DNA of 64,000 bases, taken from NCBI GenBank assembly GCA_947499555.1, contig CANMOU010000003.1, positions 258,979 through 322,978 of the forward strand, in the 5' to 3' direction. Shown one piece after another: positions 8,089-48,982 of the stretch. Made by a program: the position numbers and the translations under genes. Positions within the stretch are counted from its first letter, which is position 1. Each line of letters opens with the position of its first letter. This DNA is from an uncultured Roseovarius sp. (lineage in GTDB: Bacteria; Pseudomonadota; Alphaproteobacteria; Rhodobacterales; Rhodobacteraceae). The notes below the pieces were generated by a model. That model ran no database searches, was not told the DNA's origin, and was given only the letters and a program-made list of their open reading frames with translations.

Positions 8089-9054
8089 TCACTCGGCCAG
8101 ATGGCAGGCCACGCGTGTCTCTCCGATCATGCGCATCTCCGGGCGTTCCTTGCTGCAGCGGTCCACGGCCAAGGGGCAGCGCGGGTGAAATGCACAGCCG
8201 TTGGGCGGATTGATGGCATCGGGGATCTCGCCCTTGGGCGGGTCAACTTCACGGCCAAAGGCATCCATGCGGGGCGCCGCATCGAAAAGCATCTGCGTAT
8301 ACGGATGGCGCGGCTTGGCAAAAAGCGCGTCGCGTGGCGCTTCTTCGACCAGCCGACCCAGATAAAGCACGCCGATCCGGTCGGCCATGTGCTGCACAAC
8401 GGTTAGATCATGGCTGATGAAAAGATATGTGAGGCCAAGATCCTCGCGCAGGTCGGACATCAGGTTCAGCACCTGACTTTGTACTGACACATCCAAAGCC
8501 GATGTTGGCTCGTCACAGACGATGATCTTGGGGCCAGAGGCCAGCGCACGGGCGATACATATCCTTTGCCTTTGGCCGCCTGAAAACTCATGCGGATATT
8601 TCGACGCGTCTGCTGCCGACAGCCCCACCTGTTCCAAGAGCCGCTCGGCCAGACCGTTGGTGTCTCCACCCTTGGCCGCGACTGGTTCTGCGATAATGTC
8701 GCGCACGCGCCAACGAGGGTTGAGCGAAGCGTAGGGGTCTTGAAAGATCATCTGAATATCCGAGCGGACGGTCTCGATCTTACGGTCATCGCGTTCAGTG
8801 GCCAAATCTATACCGCTGATCTCGACAGCCCCATTCGATGGCGGAACAAGCCCCACGACGATCTTGCCAATGGTGGACTTGCCAGATCCACTCTCACCGA
8901 CAAGAGCATAGACGGTCTTTTCCTCAATCTCGAAACTGACATCTGAAACGGCAGTAAGAAGTGCTTTGGGCAGACGTTCAATGACCCGATTCAGCCATGG
9001 CTTTGAGACGTCAAAGACACGTGTCAGATTGCGAACTGAAATCAAGGCGCTCAT
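8089..9054 (-). CDS. Peptide/nickel ABC transporter ATP-binding protein (DppF/OppF-like)
   Basis: Walker A GESGSGKST, signature LSGGQRQR, and the C-terminal oligopeptide ABC extension. Start taken at MSALISVRNL. Confidence 0.85.
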   Translation of the reverse strand: MSALISVRNLTRVFDVSKPWLNRVIERLPKALLTAVSDVSFEIEEKTVYALVGESGSGKSTIGKIVVGLVPPSNGAVEISGIDLATERDDRKIETVRSDIQMIFQDPYASLNPRWRVRDIIAEPVAAKGGDTNGLAERLLEQVGLSAADASKYPHEFSGGQRQRICIARALASGPKIIVCDEPTSALDVSVQSQVLNLMSDLREDLGLTYLFISHDLTVVQHMADRIGVLYLGRLVEEAPRDALFAKPRHPYTQMLFDAAPRMDAFGREVDPPKGEIPDAINPPNGCAFHPRCPLAVDRCSKERPEMRMIGETRVACHLAE

Positions 9055-20344: not shown

Positions 20345-20418
20345 GCGGGTATGATGTAATGGTAGCCTGTCAGCTTCCCAAGCTGAACGCGCGGGTTCGA
20401 TTCCCGCTACCCGCTCCA
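20345..20418 (+). tRNA. tRNA-Gly (anticodon CCC)
   Basis: Manual fold: acceptor GCGGGTA/TACCCGC, anticodon stem TCAGC/GCTGA with loop TTCCCAA, T-arm GCGGG-TTCGATT-CCCGC, encoded CCA. U8, A14, G18, G19 and A21 are present; the D-stem has one T-C mismatch. Confidence 0.8.
20375..20418 (+). repeat. attL-like: 44-nt 3' half of tRNA-Gly (direct repeat copy 1)
   Basis: TTCCCAAGCTGAACGCGCGGGTTCGATTCCCGCTACCCGCTCCA is identical to 21992-22035. Confidence 0.85.
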
Positions 20419-20459
20419 AGCTCCTTTCTTTCCGATCTTCAACGCGTTAGCGTTCGTTT

Positions 20460-21425
20460 ATGAGCGATTTCAAAGATACATCAGATTGGAAGATTAAGGA
20501 CGGAACGACGCTCATCTATCCGCGCGAGTACAAAGGCAAAAAAGACGAGGTTGAGTCCGAAAAGAAACCGAACCGTCTCAACATGCAAGTCGAGAGGTTG
20601 TCGGTACTCAATACCATGTCTTGGGAGATCGAACGACACAGAGAGCCTGAGCAAGAAGCTGGGTTTTTAACATATGAGTCTATCACTGGACTTGGCGAGT
20701 TAGACAACTGCCGCCTGCACGCCATCACGCTCGACGAGAATGAGAACGAGACATTTACGAAACTCCATGTGGAAATTCACCCTGTCCCGCTTAAGAACCT
20801 ACAGGAAACGGCAAAGGTCGATACCTTGTCCATTATCGGTGAGGACGACGACAAACCCGACGAAGGCTGGATGAAGGACGAGATCGGCTCGATCCATTGC
20901 CACAGCGCGGGCGAGTACTATCACGAGTCACAGATTTTTGCGTCAGTTTTCCTTTCGCAAGAGAAGTTCGACGAACTTGTGACTGCGATTAAGGAGGGCA
21001 CCATCCGTTCTGCGCGAATGGAGATTCTCGCTGACGTCTACGAGTTCGGTTACGAGAGTCTTGGTGCAGATATCCGCGGTCACAAATACAACTACGCGAT
21101 CCTATGCGCGGACGAAGGCGAAAGTGCTAGGGGCAACCCGAAAGGTGCCAGCGGAAAGACGAGTGCAAGACTGCAGGAGGTCGTACTCGAATGGTCGCCG
21201 ACGCTAGACACTAGGATGGCCGCGCGCCGCGACGAGCCGGACGATGAAGACTATCTCGAACCGGATGACTTGGAGCCCGTCGGACGCGACATGGAAAAAA
21301 CAGTCGCTCGGCTGTCCAAAGACGTGCAAGGCATCCGCGGTCGCGTGGATGCATTCTACCAAGCGGCCATATTCGTTGTGATAATCCTAGTGATCTCGCA
21401 GGTTTCGGACTGGATCGGTTTTTGA
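20460..21425 (+). CDS. Hypothetical acidic protein with C-terminal transmembrane anchor (island cargo)
   Basis: 321 aa, no recognisable catalytic motifs, very acidic (EPDDEDYLEPDDLEPVG). The single C-terminal TM helix AAIFVVIILVISQVSDWIGF suggests a tail-anchored protein. GC is lower than in the flanks. Confidence 0.6.
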   Translation: MSDFKDTSDWKIKDGTTLIYPREYKGKKDEVESEKKPNRLNMQVERLSVLNTMSWEIERHREPEQEAGFLTYESITGLGELDNCRLHAITLDENENETFTKLHVEIHPVPLKNLQETAKVDTLSIIGEDDDKPDEGWMKDEIGSIHCHSAGEYYHESQIFASVFLSQEKFDELVTAIKEGTIRSARMEILADVYEFGYESLGADIRGHKYNYAILCADEGESARGNPKGASGKTSARLQEVVLEWSPTLDTRMAARRDEPDDEDYLEPDDLEPVGRDMEKTVARLSKDVQGIRGRVDAFYQAAIFVVIILVISQVSDWIGF

Positions 21426-21459
21426 AAGTGCTGGCCTAATGCTCCATCTTGGTTCAAAC

Positions 21460-21927
21460 ATGCGCCTTTTCCTCCTCCTCCTCTCTCTCCTGTCTACATC
21501 TCTCGCCACGGGCGCGTCTGCCGCTTGCAACATTGTGAACGGGAGAGCCTATGGGGACTGCGCAGGGGTGACCGTGAATACCGGCAGCACGCCCTTCCAA
21601 GTGATCGGCACTTACCGCTCGCGGTCGGGCATCTCGGAGGGCGCGCAAGTACTCTCGGGTGGGTCGCTCTCGGTATCCGGCATCGCTGACCGAGTGATCG
21701 TGGAACAAGGGGGCACAGCACACATCTCGGGAACCGTGCAGAGGTTGGAGGTGAGCGGTGTAGCTCACGTCTCTGGGACTGTGAACTCGATACTACTGCG
21801 TGATAGCGGATGCGTGATCGTCGAGGGCATCGTGGGGGGAATATCGGGCAACGGGACCGCCTTACTCGAGACGGGATCGGCGGATGCGGGCCGCCCGACC
21901 GGCGCGACGCATGAGGTCACTTACTGA
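21460..21927 (+). CDS. Hypothetical secreted Gly/Ser/Val-repeat protein (island cargo)
   Basis: Signal peptide MRLFLLLLSLLSTSLATGASAA. The mature part is built of short xSGxV-type repeats (VSGIADRV, ISGTVQRLEVSGVAHVSGTV, VGGISGNGT), which suggests a small beta-helix or beta-roll. Confidence 0.55.
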   Translation: MRLFLLLLSLLSTSLATGASAACNIVNGRAYGDCAGVTVNTGSTPFQVIGTYRSRSGISEGAQVLSGGSLSVSGIADRVIVEQGGTAHISGTVQRLEVSGVAHVSGTVNSILLRDSGCVIVEGIVGGISGNGTALLETGSADAGRPTGATHEVTY

Positions 21928-21991
21928 CAAATTACTGACGCGACCTCAATTGCGCCCACAAAATAAGGCGGTTTCAAAGGATCACTTATGG

Positions 21992-22035
21992 TTCCCAAGC
22001 TGAACGCGCGGGTTCGATTCCCGCTACCCGCTCCA
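21992..22035 (+). repeat. attR-like: second copy of the 44-nt tRNA-Gly 3' half (no 5' half, not a gene)
   Basis: Perfect identity to 20375-20418. The preceding sequence (CACTTATGG) cannot form the anticodon stem. Confidence 0.85.
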
Positions 22036-46195: not shown

Positions 46196-46209
46196 TGCCT
46201 CCCCAAAGT

Positions 46210-46251
46210 TGCAAAATTTACCTTAACAAGCATTAATCCGGAAATTTTGCA
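46210..46251. promoter_or_regulatory. Inverted repeat TGCAAAATTT-N22-AAATTTTGCA in the tup promoter region
   Basis: 10-bp perfect arms upstream of the tupB start, in an AT-rich context. Confidence 0.35.
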
Positions 46252-46358
46252 GTTAATCAATCAAAACCTGTGGCGGGCGGACGTTCCAGTCGAGCGCCAG
46301 ACAATCGTCATGGGTTTTTCGCTTGTTTTCCCGAAACCCGGCCCATAGACAGGCCAGC

Positions 46359-46405
46359 GGAGACGTGGCCGAGTGGTCGAAGGCGCTCCCCGTTTGCGGG
46401 AGTAG
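46359..46405 (+). pseudogene. Displaced 5' fragment of tRNA-Ser (acceptor, D-arm, anticodon stem; altered loop) - island boundary
   Basis: GGAGACGTGGCCGAGTGGTCGAAGGCGCTCCCC...GGGAGTAG is identical to 47802-47834 and 47841-47848 of the intact tRNA-Ser. The loop differs (GTTTGC vs TGCTAA) and the 3' half is absent. Confidence 0.75.
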
Positions 46406-46563
46406 ACGTCGGAAAATTACCTTTTTAGATCAATGTGTTGTCGCGCCCAGAATGGTGCGATGTACGGATTTTGCACATTTCTTACCGCATTGAAAATAAA
46501 CAATAATCATCTTAAGATTGCAGAAATCGAAGAAAGAAATGCCCGTCGCAAGACAGGCACTTT

Positions 46564-47046
46564 TTAGTCAGTTGGAACCCCCAGCCGAATGGACATTGCA
46601 CTCGTCGATACTTGAAAAGTATCTGCCAATGTATCAACCGAGGTTTCCCCGCCATCGATGTACAAATTCAAGAGTTCCCAAGGCATGAGAATATCGGCTG
46701 CAAGTCTATTGGCCTGTGCTTCCATCGAGTTGCTGAGCCTGCTTCGGTAAAGCCCATCATCTGCAATACCGTCACCAATCGAGTCTTGATGCAGGATAAA
46801 GTGCGCAATCTCATGTGCAGTGGTGAACCTACGTCGATTTACATGATGATCTTTGTTGACGTAAATTGCATACCCCGAAGCCCCGCCGTGTGCTTCGGAC
46901 CGCATGATTTTCCCGCTCAAGTCAGATGGCCAATTGGGAACATGATATACGTTCACTCCCAAGGAATTTGCGAGTGGAACGGTTTGGATCGGCGCATGGG
47001 TTTGATGCGCGCGTACAATCTCCATTTTTTCAACGTAAGTGAGCAT
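46564..47046 (-). CDS. ImmA/IrrE-family (DUF955, COG2856) metallopeptidase
   Basis: HEIAHFILH zinc motif in a ~160-aa protein. Strongly AT-rich codon usage that is foreign to the flanking genome. Confidence 0.75.
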   Translation of the reverse strand: MLTYVEKMEIVRAHQTHAPIQTVPLANSLGVNVYHVPNWPSDLSGKIMRSEAHGGASGYAIYVNKDHHVNRRRFTTAHEIAHFILHQDSIGDGIADDGLYRSRLSNSMEAQANRLAADILMPWELLNLYIDGGETSVDTLADTFQVSTSAMSIRLGVPTD

Positions 47047-47444
47047 TACTCCTCCTTGCCAGCTGGCACGGCTTCATCAGTAGGGGCATCTCCAACGTTA
47101 AAGTCCCCACTGCTTTCTGTTTGAGTATCTTTCCCTTTTTGATTTTGTTCATTTATCCATTTTAGCATTTGCTGATTGGCGGTTTTTCTAGCTTCATTAG
47201 TTGCTGCAGATTTTATGCCGGCGTACCCAAACAACCCGACCACGGCTATCAAAAAACCAACTAGGGCCAGAACGATCTCCAAAATCGTTATGTTTATAGC
47301 GAGGAGTTCAAGTGAGTAACCGTCGGTACGGTCCGGACCAATCGGTGCCAGCGTTTTTGCATCCCATAGTAGATATAAGAACAAAGCAGCAACACAGCAA
47401 GCAAATGCTATTACAAAAAGCAATATACTTTTGATGATTTCCAT
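47046..47444 (-). CDS. Hypothetical two-TM membrane protein (island cargo), translationally coupled to the ImmA/IrrE gene
   Basis: Two strong TM helices and an acidic C-terminal tail. Its stop overlaps the start of the downstream peptidase. AT-rich. Confidence 0.6.
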   Translation of the reverse strand: MEIIKSILLFVIAFACCVAALFLYLLWDAKTLAPIGPDRTDGYSLELLAINITILEIVLALVGFLIAVVGLFGYAGIKSAATNEARKTANQQMLKWINEQNQKGKDTQTESSGDFNVGDAPTDEAVPAGKEE

Positions 47445-47649
47445 GCTCGGCCCAGCGTTTGTCTGTGGACCTATACCGTGGGTTTTAAATTATTGCTAGC
47501 CGCGTGTGAGGTACATGTGCCGAAGCGCGACATCAGATTTCTGCAAATTCTTCCAGAAAGAAATGCGCCATACGTAGCCAAAACCACAGCCATGAACTGG
47601 GGCTTTTAAAGATCCGAACCGAGAACGTTTCGTGAAGGGTGTGCACGGA

Positions 47650-47705
47650 TTTTGCACGTTTTGCACGTGCACTTTCGTGGAAAACCGTGCACTTTCGTGG
47701 AAAAT
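47650..47705. repeat. Iteron-like short tandem repeats: 2x TTTTGCACG and 2x CGTGCACTTTCGTGGAAAA(C/T)
   Basis: Direct inspection of 47650-47705. A related motif, CGGATTTTGCAC, also occurs at the left island end (46467-46478). Confidence 0.6.
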
Positions 47706-47801
47706 CGTTTAATTTCAAGGGGTCAGCTGAAAACGTACATTTTTTGGATGGACCCAAAAAAAGCCTTGTATTTCCAACCTGTTACGAGATAGACCGAGCG
47801 G

Positions 47802-47891
47802 TGGAGACGTGGCCGAGTGGTCGAAGGCGCTCCCCTGCTAAGGGAGTAGGCGGGAAACCGTCTCGAGGGTTCGAATCCCTTCGTCTCCGCC
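47802..47891 (+). tRNA. tRNA-Ser (anticodon GCT)
   Basis: Acceptor GGAGACG/CGTCTCC, anticodon stem CTCCC/GGGAG with loop CTGCTAA, long variable arm, T-arm GAGGG-TTCGAAT-CCCTT, encoded GCCA 3' end. Confidence 0.9.
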
Positions 47892-48043
47892 ACAAAACCT
47901 CCCGACCTTTTCGACCAAGCCGCCCGTACTACCGCGCGCGACGAAGGCGCAGGCCAAACCTGCCCGAAAGACTTGTGTCGCAAAACTGTGATGTGGTTGA
48001 CTTAAGCAGCGCTATTCAAACTGACTGAGACGGAGCTGAAGAT

Positions 48044-48982
48044 TTGACCAGGTTGCATGCAAAAGATGGGTCTTCTGCCTCTTCCCTTTGTTTTGGATGC
48101 ATGCAGTTTGGCGGCACAGCCGATGCCAGATCCAGCCAGGCCATGTTCGAGGCTTGTCGCAACGCAGGCTTGAACTTTTTTGACACAGCTCACGTCTATA
48201 CAGAAGGGTCGTCCGAGCGGCTTTTGGGCGGCTATGTCAAACAAGACCGCGAAAAGCTGATCATCGCGACCAAAGCTGGCTACACCGGTGGCAGTGGATC
48301 AAACACCATCCTGCAGCAGTTTGACGAAAGCCGGAAAAGGCTGGGCCTCGATATGGTCGACCTTTTGTATCTGCACCGATGGGATCCCGAAACCCCTTTG
48401 CAAGAAACGTTTGAGACCCTGTGTCGGCTACAGGCGGACGGCCATATCCGCTATATCGGCGTGTCCAATTTCGCAGCCTGGCAGGTGATGAAAGCGCAGG
48501 CTGTTGCGGACCAATTGGGAACGCGCATTGACGTGCTTCAACCGATGTATTCGCTTGTGAAGCGTCAAGCCGAGGTAGAGCTTTTCCCGATGGCACTTTC
48601 CGAGGGTTTCTCGGTTGTTCCTTATTCCCCTCTTGGCGGTGGCATGCTGACCGGAAAGTACCTGTCCGGTGGAACCGGGCGTCTGTCCACTGACGCGCGA
48701 TATGCGGCGCGATATGGACAAGCGTGGATGAAAAAAACAACCGAAGACCTGGCTAAACTGGCACGCGAGATGGGTATTGATGCGGCCACCTTGGCCGTTG
48801 CCTGGGCCGCACATCATATTGCCGTAACTGCGCCGATCATTAGCGCGCGCGATGCGCAGCAGCTTCAAACGTCTTTGGATGCCTTGACTTTGTCACTGAG
48901 CGCAGAAGATTACGCCCGCGTAGAAGCTTTGTCTCCGCGACCCGCCCCTGCGACCGACCGGCTGGAGGAAGCGGGCACCTAA
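48044..48982 (+). CDS. Aldo/keto reductase
   Basis: AKR signature (FFDTAHVYTEGSSERLLG, IRYIGVSNF); 312 aa. Confidence 0.85.
   Translation: MTRLHAKDGSSASSLCFGCMQFGGTADARSSQAMFEACRNAGLNFFDTAHVYTEGSSERLLGGYVKQDREKLIIATKAGYTGGSGSNTILQQFDESRKRLGLDMVDLLYLHRWDPETPLQETFETLCRLQADGHIRYIGVSNFAAWQVMKAQAVADQLGTRIDVLQPMYSLVKRQAEVELFPMALSEGFSVVPYSPLGGGMLTGKYLSGGTGRLSTDARYAARYGQAWMKKTTEDLAKLAREMGIDAATLAVAWAAHHIAVTAPIISARDAQQLQTSLDALTLSLSAEDYARVEALSPRPAPATDRLEEAGT

Follow-up and report, generated by a model that had tools for sequence, protein, structure and literature searches.

Among described systems, RosmerTA couples a Zn-peptidase antitoxin (RmrA) to a toxin (RmrT) of unknown function; the toxin gene comes first in 58% of ImmA-type pairs, and the RmrT of Gordonia phage Kita is localised in the membrane and depolarises it (PMC10440598). 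In CapP and IrrE, a C-terminal GAF domain forms a groove for single-stranded DNA (ssDNA), and an adjacent XRE-type repressor is cleaved (PMC13228613). Here, we describe a two-gene operon in a 64,000-nucleotide (nt) stretch of DNA from an uncultured Roseovarius sp. (contig CANMOU010000003.1, positions 258,979 to 322,978), hereafter called the window. The operon encodes a small membrane protein with two transmembrane (TM) helices followed by an M78-type zinc peptidase, and it lies between a displaced 5' part of a tRNA-Ser gene and the intact tRNA-Ser(GCT). The pair is one conserved, self-contained operon family found across phyla. By analogy with RosmerTA, it may work as a toxin-antitoxin (TA) or abortive-infection system in which the membrane protein would be the effector and the peptidase its restraint, a reading to which we give a probability of roughly 0.5 to 0.6.

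The operon consists of the following parts:

47046 to 47444, minus strand: membrane protein of 132 amino acids (aa) with two TM segments, seen as two hydrophobic helices.
46564 to 47046, minus strand: M78 (ImmA/IrrE) zinc metallopeptidase of 160 aa, Pfam Peptidase_M78 (PF06114).
46537 to 46562, minus strand: terminator-like hairpin with an 11-bp stem and a T-rich tail, directly after the peptidase stop (consensus scan and minimum-free-energy fold).

Both open reading frames (ORFs) were confirmed, as was their order on the minus strand, which an earlier sequence-only reading of this DNA had described as a two-TM protein followed by a HEIAH peptidase of the DUF955/ImmA-IrrE type. The stop of the membrane-protein gene overlaps the peptidase start as TAATG, with AAGGAGGAG just upstream of the latter.

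The 160-aa protein matched PF06114 with an E-value of 1.3e-17 and 64.1 bits, the cut-off being 22. Its zinc motif occupies residues 78-82 (HEIAH within TTAHEIAH), whereby H78, E79 and H82 were invariant across 18 relatives; altogether, 47 positions were invariant in 18 peptidase sequences, including a loop outside the catalytic motif, IGDG..DD.LYRS. The AlphaFold model had a mean predicted local distance difference test score (pLDDT) of 90.4, and its top Foldseek matches were IrrE (3dte) and PprI (8sln), both with a probability of 1.00 and a query template-modelling score (TM-score) of 0.62-0.63. Profile matches in the PDB were IrrE, CapP (7t5t) and 9vzy, an HTH-peptidase protein (HTH, helix-turn-helix). 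The best PADLOC model was capP (5e-25), covering only model positions 11-150 of 242, and 13 RmrA models matched in their peptidase part only (approximately positions 145-285 of 360-400; E 5e-10 to 2e-5). Given this partial coverage, the protein has neither the GAF domain of CapP nor the N-terminal XRE HTH of RmrA, and its architecture is a peptidase domain with a short helical C-terminal part. Sub-threshold matches of the N-terminal 60 residues to FaeA/PefI-like winged-helix families were attributed to the sheet and helices with which the zincin fold begins and not to a DNA-binding domain.

By hydrophobicity, the membrane protein has a first TM helix at approximately residues 7-25, a short acidic loop and a second helix at approximately 54-72. 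The second continues into a conserved juxtamembrane helix (FGYAGIKSAA), after which come a helix rich in lysine and a disordered, acidic tail; AlphaFold predicted helices at residues 2-29 and 44-105 and a disordered acidic tail, with a pLDDT of 65 (low confidence). Both ends of the protein are probably in the cytoplasm, where the peptidase could reach them, because acidic residues mark the loop that joins the two helices, and lysine and arginine are abundant past the second helix. The protein has no match in Pfam, NCBIfam, PHROG or PADLOC; PADLOC models gave nothing at E ≤ 1 for the window protein and nothing at E ≤ 0.01 for 10 members of its family. Weak matches to AmaP, an Rz-like spanin and DUF2207_C were below threshold and reflect the composition of TM helices. 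The family to which the protein belongs, hereafter the TM family, has 160 representatives (50% clustering, E ≤ 1e-3) among 1.84 billion proteins.

Judged by analogy, RosmerTA and the ImmA zone of NetFlax appear to be the closest described kind, the pair lacking the HTH of RmrA and a known RmrT partner. What is shared is a mobile, defence-associated two-gene operon in which a protein with an M78 domain stands beside a small unrelated partner, often encoded first. However, RmrA carries its XRE HTH fused to the peptidase over 360-400 positions, whereas the window protein has 160 aa and no HTH, and its partner is in no PADLOC toxin model. With CapP and IrrE/PprI-DdrO the peptidase shares the zinc-peptidase core, that is, the HExxH motif and the helical segment after it; CapP is its best single profile, and its fold matches IrrE/PprI. 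In contrast to CapH/CapP and IrrE/DdrO, there is no GAF domain, no CapH- or DdrO-like gene and no downstream defence operon. The ImmA of ICEBs1 and of prophages is likewise a small stand-alone peptidase on mobile DNA and is similar in size to the window peptidase, but here no ImmR/cI-like repressor is present, the partner is a membrane protein, and the locus is not on a prophage or an integrative and conjugative element (ICE). The likeness to TA and abortive-infection modules that had been read from the layout holds, in that the nearest described relatives, RosmerTA and CapP, are TA or defence systems.

The conservation of the pair was followed with profiles for both proteins, whereby peptidases with at least 140 bits against the family profile formed a tight subfamily and those with 60-100 bits a distant ImmA-like set. 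A TM-family gene lies directly upstream of the peptidase, usually overlapping it, in 60 of 70 tight-subfamily cases from several phyla, and the remaining 10 are contig ends, extra tandem peptidases or have divergent partners. In comparison, none of the 59 distant peptidases has such a partner. This co-occurrence across genomes makes the pair a genuine module, as the sequence-only reading had proposed, and not a remnant of ImmR/ImmA. A peptidase also follows each of the TM-family genes in the fetched DNA (73 of 73), a sample that is biased for judging solo TM genes. Moreover, the two proteins diverge together (Mantel r = 0.56, a value reached in none of 999 permutations).

When one genome per species was scanned, more than 535 peptidase loci emerged, and the best 79 of them came from Alphaproteobacteria, Acidobacteriota, Chloroflexota, Gammaproteobacteria and others. 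Most loci encode a partner of 115-175 aa, with one TM helix or two, whose ORF ends between -23 and +16 nt from the peptidase start, and 42 of 52 such partners were detectably homologous to the window protein, with the second TM helix and FGY..IK..A as the common core in family alignments. With more than 600 peptidase clusters (cluster-level homologues at 57-84% identity) and its 160 TM representatives, the branch is widespread in these lineages.

Several loci depart from the simple layout. At L021 (430-2426) and L036 (7279-9075), the latter from a metagenome-assembled genome (MAG) of Candidatus Marinacidobacterium, two to three tandem peptidase paralogues stand behind a single TM gene, and L021 has a second module, on either side of which is a copy of an AAA-ATPase gene (88% identity between the copies). 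The peptidase locus has the same layout and the same identity to the query in a MAG of a Nitrosopumilaceae archaeon and in one from Caldilineaceae (L022 and L023, 7600-8560); either the binning is at fault or a transfer between domains took place very recently. In a distant branch at 37-46% identity (L053, L057, L060, L065 and L071), a Beta_protein gene (PF14350) regularly comes after the peptidase and is followed in four of the five loci (not in L071) by a gene for a 269-aa partner, which suggests a larger four-gene system.

An ImmA-type peptidase without a repressor might be taken for the decayed immunity region of a prophage or ICE, i.e., an anti-repressor that has lost its ImmR/XRE repressor beside an incidental membrane ORF; PHROG and Pfam do place the peptidase in the phage/ICE anti-repressor family. 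This explanation is hardly credible. The TM partner is conserved and specific to the subfamily, and the co-occurrence statistics contradict an incidental ORF. The subfamily was found in none of 50,697 phage genomes at E ≤ 1e-15 and in 3 of 72,556 plasmids at E ≤ 1e-20, and only 9 of 2.9 million viral contigs had relatives of at least 42% identity. Besides, no repressor gene recurs next to the module. For a survey of neighbours at approximately 50 loci, the ORF with the best score among those of at least 55 aa (in most cases the longest) was taken on either side of the module; the most frequent Pfam families listed for the resulting 91 flanking genes included no HTH/XRE or integrase family, although short XRE-type genes may escape such a survey, and a DUF6471 HTH gene near the module recurs in only three loci. 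The regular pairing of the peptidase with a separate XRE regulator, which had been named as the sign of a remnant, was therefore not seen.

In the favoured TA or abortive-infection reading, the membrane protein would depolarise or permeabilise the membrane, and the peptidase would restrain it by binding or cutting the conserved cytoplasmic juxtamembrane helix and tail until a trigger, e.g., phage infection, or the loss of the cassette freed the effector. The coupled layout, the strict co-inheritance, the low guanine-plus-cytosine (GC) content, the carriage by transposons described below and the scattered single copies fit this reading, as do solo peptidases in the absence of solo TM genes. Peptidases standing alone or as tandem extras without a TM partner were seen at L014, L038, L043, L058, L021 and L036, and no TM gene was seen alone; within the sampling bias mentioned above, this fits the TM protein as the harmful partner. 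If the reading is correct, the pair would be a compact new branch of the ImmA-protease (Rosmer-type) systems, and a protease domain alone, without a DNA-binding domain, could partner a membrane effector.

Several points weigh against it. Toxicity, neutralisation and defence are ascribed to the family by analogy; among known toxin models, those of RmrT included, none fits the TM protein, and the peptidase is without the HTH found in RmrA. The mean pairwise identity is 47% for the peptidase and 20% for the membrane protein, the reverse of the usual toxin/antitoxin pattern, and the stronger conservation of the peptidase could point to a conserved cellular target. That pattern is what a reversal of roles would account for, in which the peptidase would be the effector, cutting a conserved cellular or phage protein as Lit cuts EF-Tu, and the membrane protein its inhibitor, anchor or infection sensor. 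The conservation of the peptidase across phyla is indeed unusual, as the invariant positions given above show, and the membrane protein diverges much faster. We nevertheless regard reversed roles as quite improbable: an unrestrained toxic protease is hard to square with solo and tandem peptidases lacking a TM partner, and where RosmerTA has been studied by experiment, the antitoxin was the ImmA-domain protein.

A part of the family is carried by transposons. Of about 80 loci, 13-14 have an IS1595-family transposase (PF12762 with PF12760) no farther than approximately 3 kb from the module. Four of them show terminal inverted repeats and a perfect target duplication of 8 bp, between which lie the TM gene, the peptidase, a convergent DDE_Tnp_IS1595 transposase and sometimes an extra gene:

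L003, Antarctobacter heliothermus DSM 11445: element of 3,013 bp, target duplication AAAAGTAA.
L007, Caulobacterales MAG: element of 2,020 bp, target duplication ACAAAACC.
L055, Acidobacteriota MAG: element of 3,668 bp, target duplication AATTGTTA.
L059, Acidobacteriaceae MAG: element of 3,135 bp, target duplication AAAAATCC.

The smallest of these, L007, consists of the pair and the transposase and nothing else. The same layout was present at L018, with 46-nt inverted repeats and no target duplication, and at L242 and L243, which have in addition a RhuM-family gene and inverted repeats nearly identical to those of L003. Among the relatives of the window copy, the closest (L240, 84% identity) is on a 1-kb contig with only a P63C-like remnant, convergent and downstream as in the L003 layout, and L003 and L242 follow at 79% identity; by the layouts of the latter two, the nearest relatives with readable context are transposon-borne. 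The IS1595 family reportedly includes members with passenger genes. A literature search for IS1595 with ImmA/M78 passengers, or for COG2856 with membrane partners, found only the RosmerTA/NetFlax work, and the link of the pair to IS1595 transposons appears to be unreported. Carriage with target duplications is a concrete case of an insertion sequence that carries an accessory two-gene system, and it explains the reach of the cassette into many phyla.

It is conceivable, though tentative, that the pair is a dedicated, undescribed accessory system of IS1595 transposons, serving either as cargo for addiction or defence through which the element earns its upkeep, or as a protease switch at the membrane that governs transposition, and that solo copies are stranded or domesticated ones that spread by homology-driven insertion near conserved genes. 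Whereas the transposon-borne relatives share inverted repeats, 8-bp duplications and the transposase, the window copy has neither transposase nor inverted repeats: no transposase or P63C fragment is present (best transposase tblastn E > 1), and the inverted repeats of six related transposons have no counterpart there. In a purely regulatory version, the peptidase would be a stress-activated protease like ImmA or CapP, the membrane protein its sensor, anchor or substrate, and the pair would control IS1595 transposition or expression, the window copy being a stranded remnant. ImmA, IrrE and CapP all act by stress-triggered cleavage of a partner, and the module is a constant passenger beside the transposase in IS1595 transposons of three distant lineages, as the bare element L007 illustrates. 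However, about 85% of the copies have no transposase nearby, and yet their ORFs are intact and co-evolving; there is no DNA-binding component for the control of transcription, and the ssDNA-sensing GAF/HTH groove of CapP and IrrE is absent. A regulatory role is therefore rather improbable.

Three observations concern individual transposons. The elements at L242 (4125-8666) and L243 are in a phage-like region, just after an Amidase_2 gene and a gene with the Acb2/Tad1 hairpin domain, an anti-defence family. The TM gene of L003 (7595-8236) reads past the expected stop region into another frame, giving 213-228 aa; either a frameshift has disabled the tail or the sequence contains an error. Inside the transposon of L055, between the peptidase and the next ORF, ARAGORN called an 83-nt tRNA-Ile(tat) at 8542-8624, which may be a false call or a captured tRNA-like piece.

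The settings of the module are varied. The 91 flanking genes were unrelated housekeeping genes (e.g., recA, thiC and ppc), and the only recurrent neighbour families were IS1595 transposase domains, Beta_protein and one other transposase. In nearly all loci, the GC content of the module is 0.05-0.2 below that of its flanks. Among close relatives of the window copy, the module of Antarctobacter heliothermus adjoins ispE, and that of Ruegeria atlantica (L001) is inside the S10 ribosomal-protein operon, between rplW and rplB. Besides the module, the insert at L001 (3676-6778) contains a gene for a fatty-acid desaturase, a hairpin resembling a terminator and, in degenerate form, the 3' end of rplW a second time. 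A tRNA gene adjoins the module in the window only, the doubtful call inside the L055 transposon being the one other case. The same two genes were thus found at non-tRNA sites, which the sequence-only reading had named as a finding that would count against a tRNA-associated island, although they reached these sites by mobility and not by the vertical descent it had in mind.

At the window locus, the cassette is bounded by two copies of the tRNA-Ser 5' region:

46322 to 46415, plus strand: displaced 5' part of tRNA-Ser(GCT), from the direct repeat, a 33-nt perfect match and a gapped alignment.
46322 to 46327 and 46345 to 46350, plus strand: -35 and -10 of the displaced copy, from the sequence.
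46359 to 46415, plus strand: tRNA positions 1 to approximately 55 of the displaced copy, with the anticodon loop at 46392-46398, from the sequence.
47765 to 47892, plus strand: intact tRNA-Ser(GCT) with its promoter-like region (-35 at 47765-47770, -10 at 47789-47794, 8-nt leader).

The intact gene itself occupies 47803-47892 on the plus strand (ARAGORN; Rfam tRNA, 59.8 bits), whereas the displaced fragment was not called a tRNA by either ARAGORN or Rfam. The direct repeat, 46345-46408 against 47789-47852, is 83% identical over 64 nt, and its core at 46359-46391 is a 33-nt stretch with a 100% match to the tRNA 5' half (BLAST against the whole window, E 1e-13). A gapped alignment extends the similarity to 46322-46415 against 47765-47857, with no resemblance to the tRNA past 46415. 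The copy of the tRNA 5' half and its position 1.44 kb upstream of the intact gene agree with the earlier description, but not its length, which had been put at 47 nt: the similarity is longer and includes the promoter. Indeed, both copies have a promoter-like layout. The left one has -35 CTTGTT, a 17-nt spacer, -10 ATAGAC and an 8-nt leader followed by GGAGACG, and the right one has -35 CTTGTA, an 18-nt spacer, -10 ATAGAC and likewise a leader of 8 nt and then GGAGACG. Between the copies, the divergence affects the spacers and leaders but not the hexamers or the tRNA body.

The GC content is 0.44-0.50 over 46200-47850 and approximately 0.57 in the flanks (0.46 against 0.56 for the DNA between the repeats). 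No other 2-kb block of the 64-kb window has a lower GC content. The AT-richness noted before is real, although it is moderate and not striking. The best explanation is that the DNA between the displaced fragment and the intact tRNA-Ser was acquired horizontally, with the two-gene cassette, here in its solo form, as its sole cargo; for this account as a whole, together with the proposed function and route of arrival, we put the odds near even.

As to how the cassette arrived, recombination through the conserved tRNA 5' half is favoured over a tRNA-specific integrase. The incoming DNA would have carried the promoter and 5' half of a donor tRNA-Ser beside the cassette and would have recombined through the 33-34 nt of the 5' half in which donor and recipient agreed. 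A circle might have been inserted by a single crossover, or homologous recombination on one side might have been combined with illegitimate joining; in either case, the resident promoter and 5' part would have been left as a dead fragment beside the tup operon. This route fits better because the locus contains two orthologous promoters and 5' halves that are identical only where tRNAs are invariant, and the same promoter layout with a diverged spacer and leader has the look of two orthologous genes from different genomes. The right-hand promoter and 5' half are probably the incoming copy; synteny with the nearest relative begins only at 47971.

A comparable arrangement was found at L006, where the final 11 codons of the upstream gene are present twice, one copy on each side of a 1,026-bp insert consisting of the module only. 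These copies differ at four positions, all synonymous, and the GC-poorer copy is the one fused to the gene, a pattern which argues that the incoming DNA brought an orthologous gene end from another genome and against an on-the-spot duplication. Diverged local duplications around the module were also present at L052 (approximately 200 nt), L033 (50 nt), L021 (973 nt, 88%) and L038 (622 nt, 96%); the degenerate rplW 3' copy of L001 is upstream of the module and does not bracket it.

Three results do not sit well with this account. The first, given above, is that the window copy has no transposon ends. The second is the anticodon loop of the fragment, CGTTTGC as opposed to CTGCTAA in the intact tRNA, which differs at five of its seven positions. 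The block of identity stops precisely at the first loop base of the fragment, and beyond the loop the 3' stem arm and the first bases of the variable arm are retained (GGAGTAGaCG..GGAAA), both arms of the anticodon stem being intact. The clustering of the differences in the loop is non-random (p approximately 6e-5 for one window and approximately 2.5e-3 after scanning). Homologous recombination does not predict a replaced anticodon loop, and no model considered here accounts for it. The third is that neither an empty site nor a donor was found among the relatives of TupB and of the aldo-keto reductase, whose genes flank the island together with phn genes. On the left, 80 metagenome loci of TupB relatives (at most 79% identity) had no tRNA-Ser beside tupB. 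On the right, relatives of the aldo-keto reductase (75-87% identity) keep the synteny with the phn genes only from 47971 or 48057, and none has a tRNA-Ser or an island upstream. The comparison of the tRNA-Ser locus that the sequence-only reading called for thus delimits the conserved side and provides neither the unoccupied site nor the source. The source genome has no close relative in the collections, as all four of the tested proteins were singleton clusters.

The end of the identity at the first loop base, with both stem arms kept, has in turn the look of a core site with inverted binding arms and speaks for an integrase-made mini-island. In that case, an element without its own recombinase would have been moved in the manner of cis-mobilisable elements by a tyrosine integrase acting in trans that crossed over at the anticodon stem-loop, and the tRNA gene would have gained its new promoter and 5' half from the element. 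Like tRNA-integrated islands and cis-mobilisable elements, the locus has a direct repeat of a tRNA part bounding foreign DNA and an intact tRNA gene, and at tRNA-Gly the window has another mini-island without an integrase, bounded by a perfect repeat of 44 nt. Nevertheless, such an origin is unlikely. There is no integrase gene in or beside the island, and the DNA between the repeats is too short to hold one, so the sequence-only reading was right about the absence of an integrase as it was about the lack of an HTH partner. The repeat is the 5' part with a second promoter instead of the usual 3' part, and such a reversed orientation is rare among tRNA-integrating elements. The loop would have been the overlap for strand exchange, and yet it differs at most of its positions; an exact search of the 2.9 million viral contigs for the variant anticodon stem-loop gave no match. 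Finally, the cargo family is not otherwise associated with tRNA genes, the module occurring at many non-tRNA sites, and an integrase is never a recurrent neighbour. The proposal of an enzyme that crosses over in the anticodon or variable region is consequently not supported as it was stated, given the non-tRNA and IS1595 settings, the differing loop and the 5' orientation. The "tRNA island" of the window is better described as a small acquired cassette, and its repeat is more likely to have arisen in passing, when DNA recombined through a conserved tRNA segment, than to record the action of an integrase.

The tRNA-Gly mini-island is at 20345-22035, where tRNA-Gly(CCC) is followed by a 1.57-kb segment ending in a perfect 44-nt copy of the part from the anticodon to the 3' end (21992-22035), i.e., in the canonical orientation. 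Its ORFs encode proteins of 321 aa, with a hydrophobic C-terminal end, and 162 aa, apparently secreted; neither had a Pfam match, and no integrase was present. It indicates that tRNA-targeting recombination has occurred in this lineage.

Upstream of the aldo-keto reductase gene, the content differs in each relative. In place of the window DNA at 47893-48057, the relatives L244-L249 have a guanylate cyclase, a Fic protein, a defence cluster of BrxR-WYL with WGR, SIR2 and HerA-like genes, or EamA with a methyltransferase. Because of this different DNA in each relative, the position looks like a variable or defence-island hotspot.

The remainder of the island is non-coding:

46409 to 46536, no strand: DNA between the tRNA fragment and the operon terminator.
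47445 to 47764, no strand: 320-nt spacer upstream of the operon with repeats of TTTTGCAC and GTGCAC and a tandem 20-mer, CGTGCACTTTCGTGGAAAAY, in two copies (47642-47705).

Small ORFs in the non-coding parts (155 nt and 358 nt) had no Pfam match and no HTH family, and Rfam gave no match either. Apart from the terminator, their RNA folds were unremarkable, with z-scores of -1.5 for the upstream spacer and -1.75 for the other part. The DNA at 46409-46536 has no homology to any other module-bearing locus, and the upstream spacer is likewise not conserved; the copies of the module have no non-coding ends, promoter or att-like sequences in common, their homology being confined to the coding regions. 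The spacer presumably contains the promoter or operator of the operon. The 20-mer TGTACGGATTTTGCACATTT at 46461-46480, downstream of the operon, occurs again at 47642-47661, and the TTTTGCAC and GTGCAC motifs together with the 20-mers could be operator sites for some regulator. Besides this related 20-mer downstream of the operon, an inverted partial match to the 20-mer is present at 46205-46217, in the promoter region of tup.

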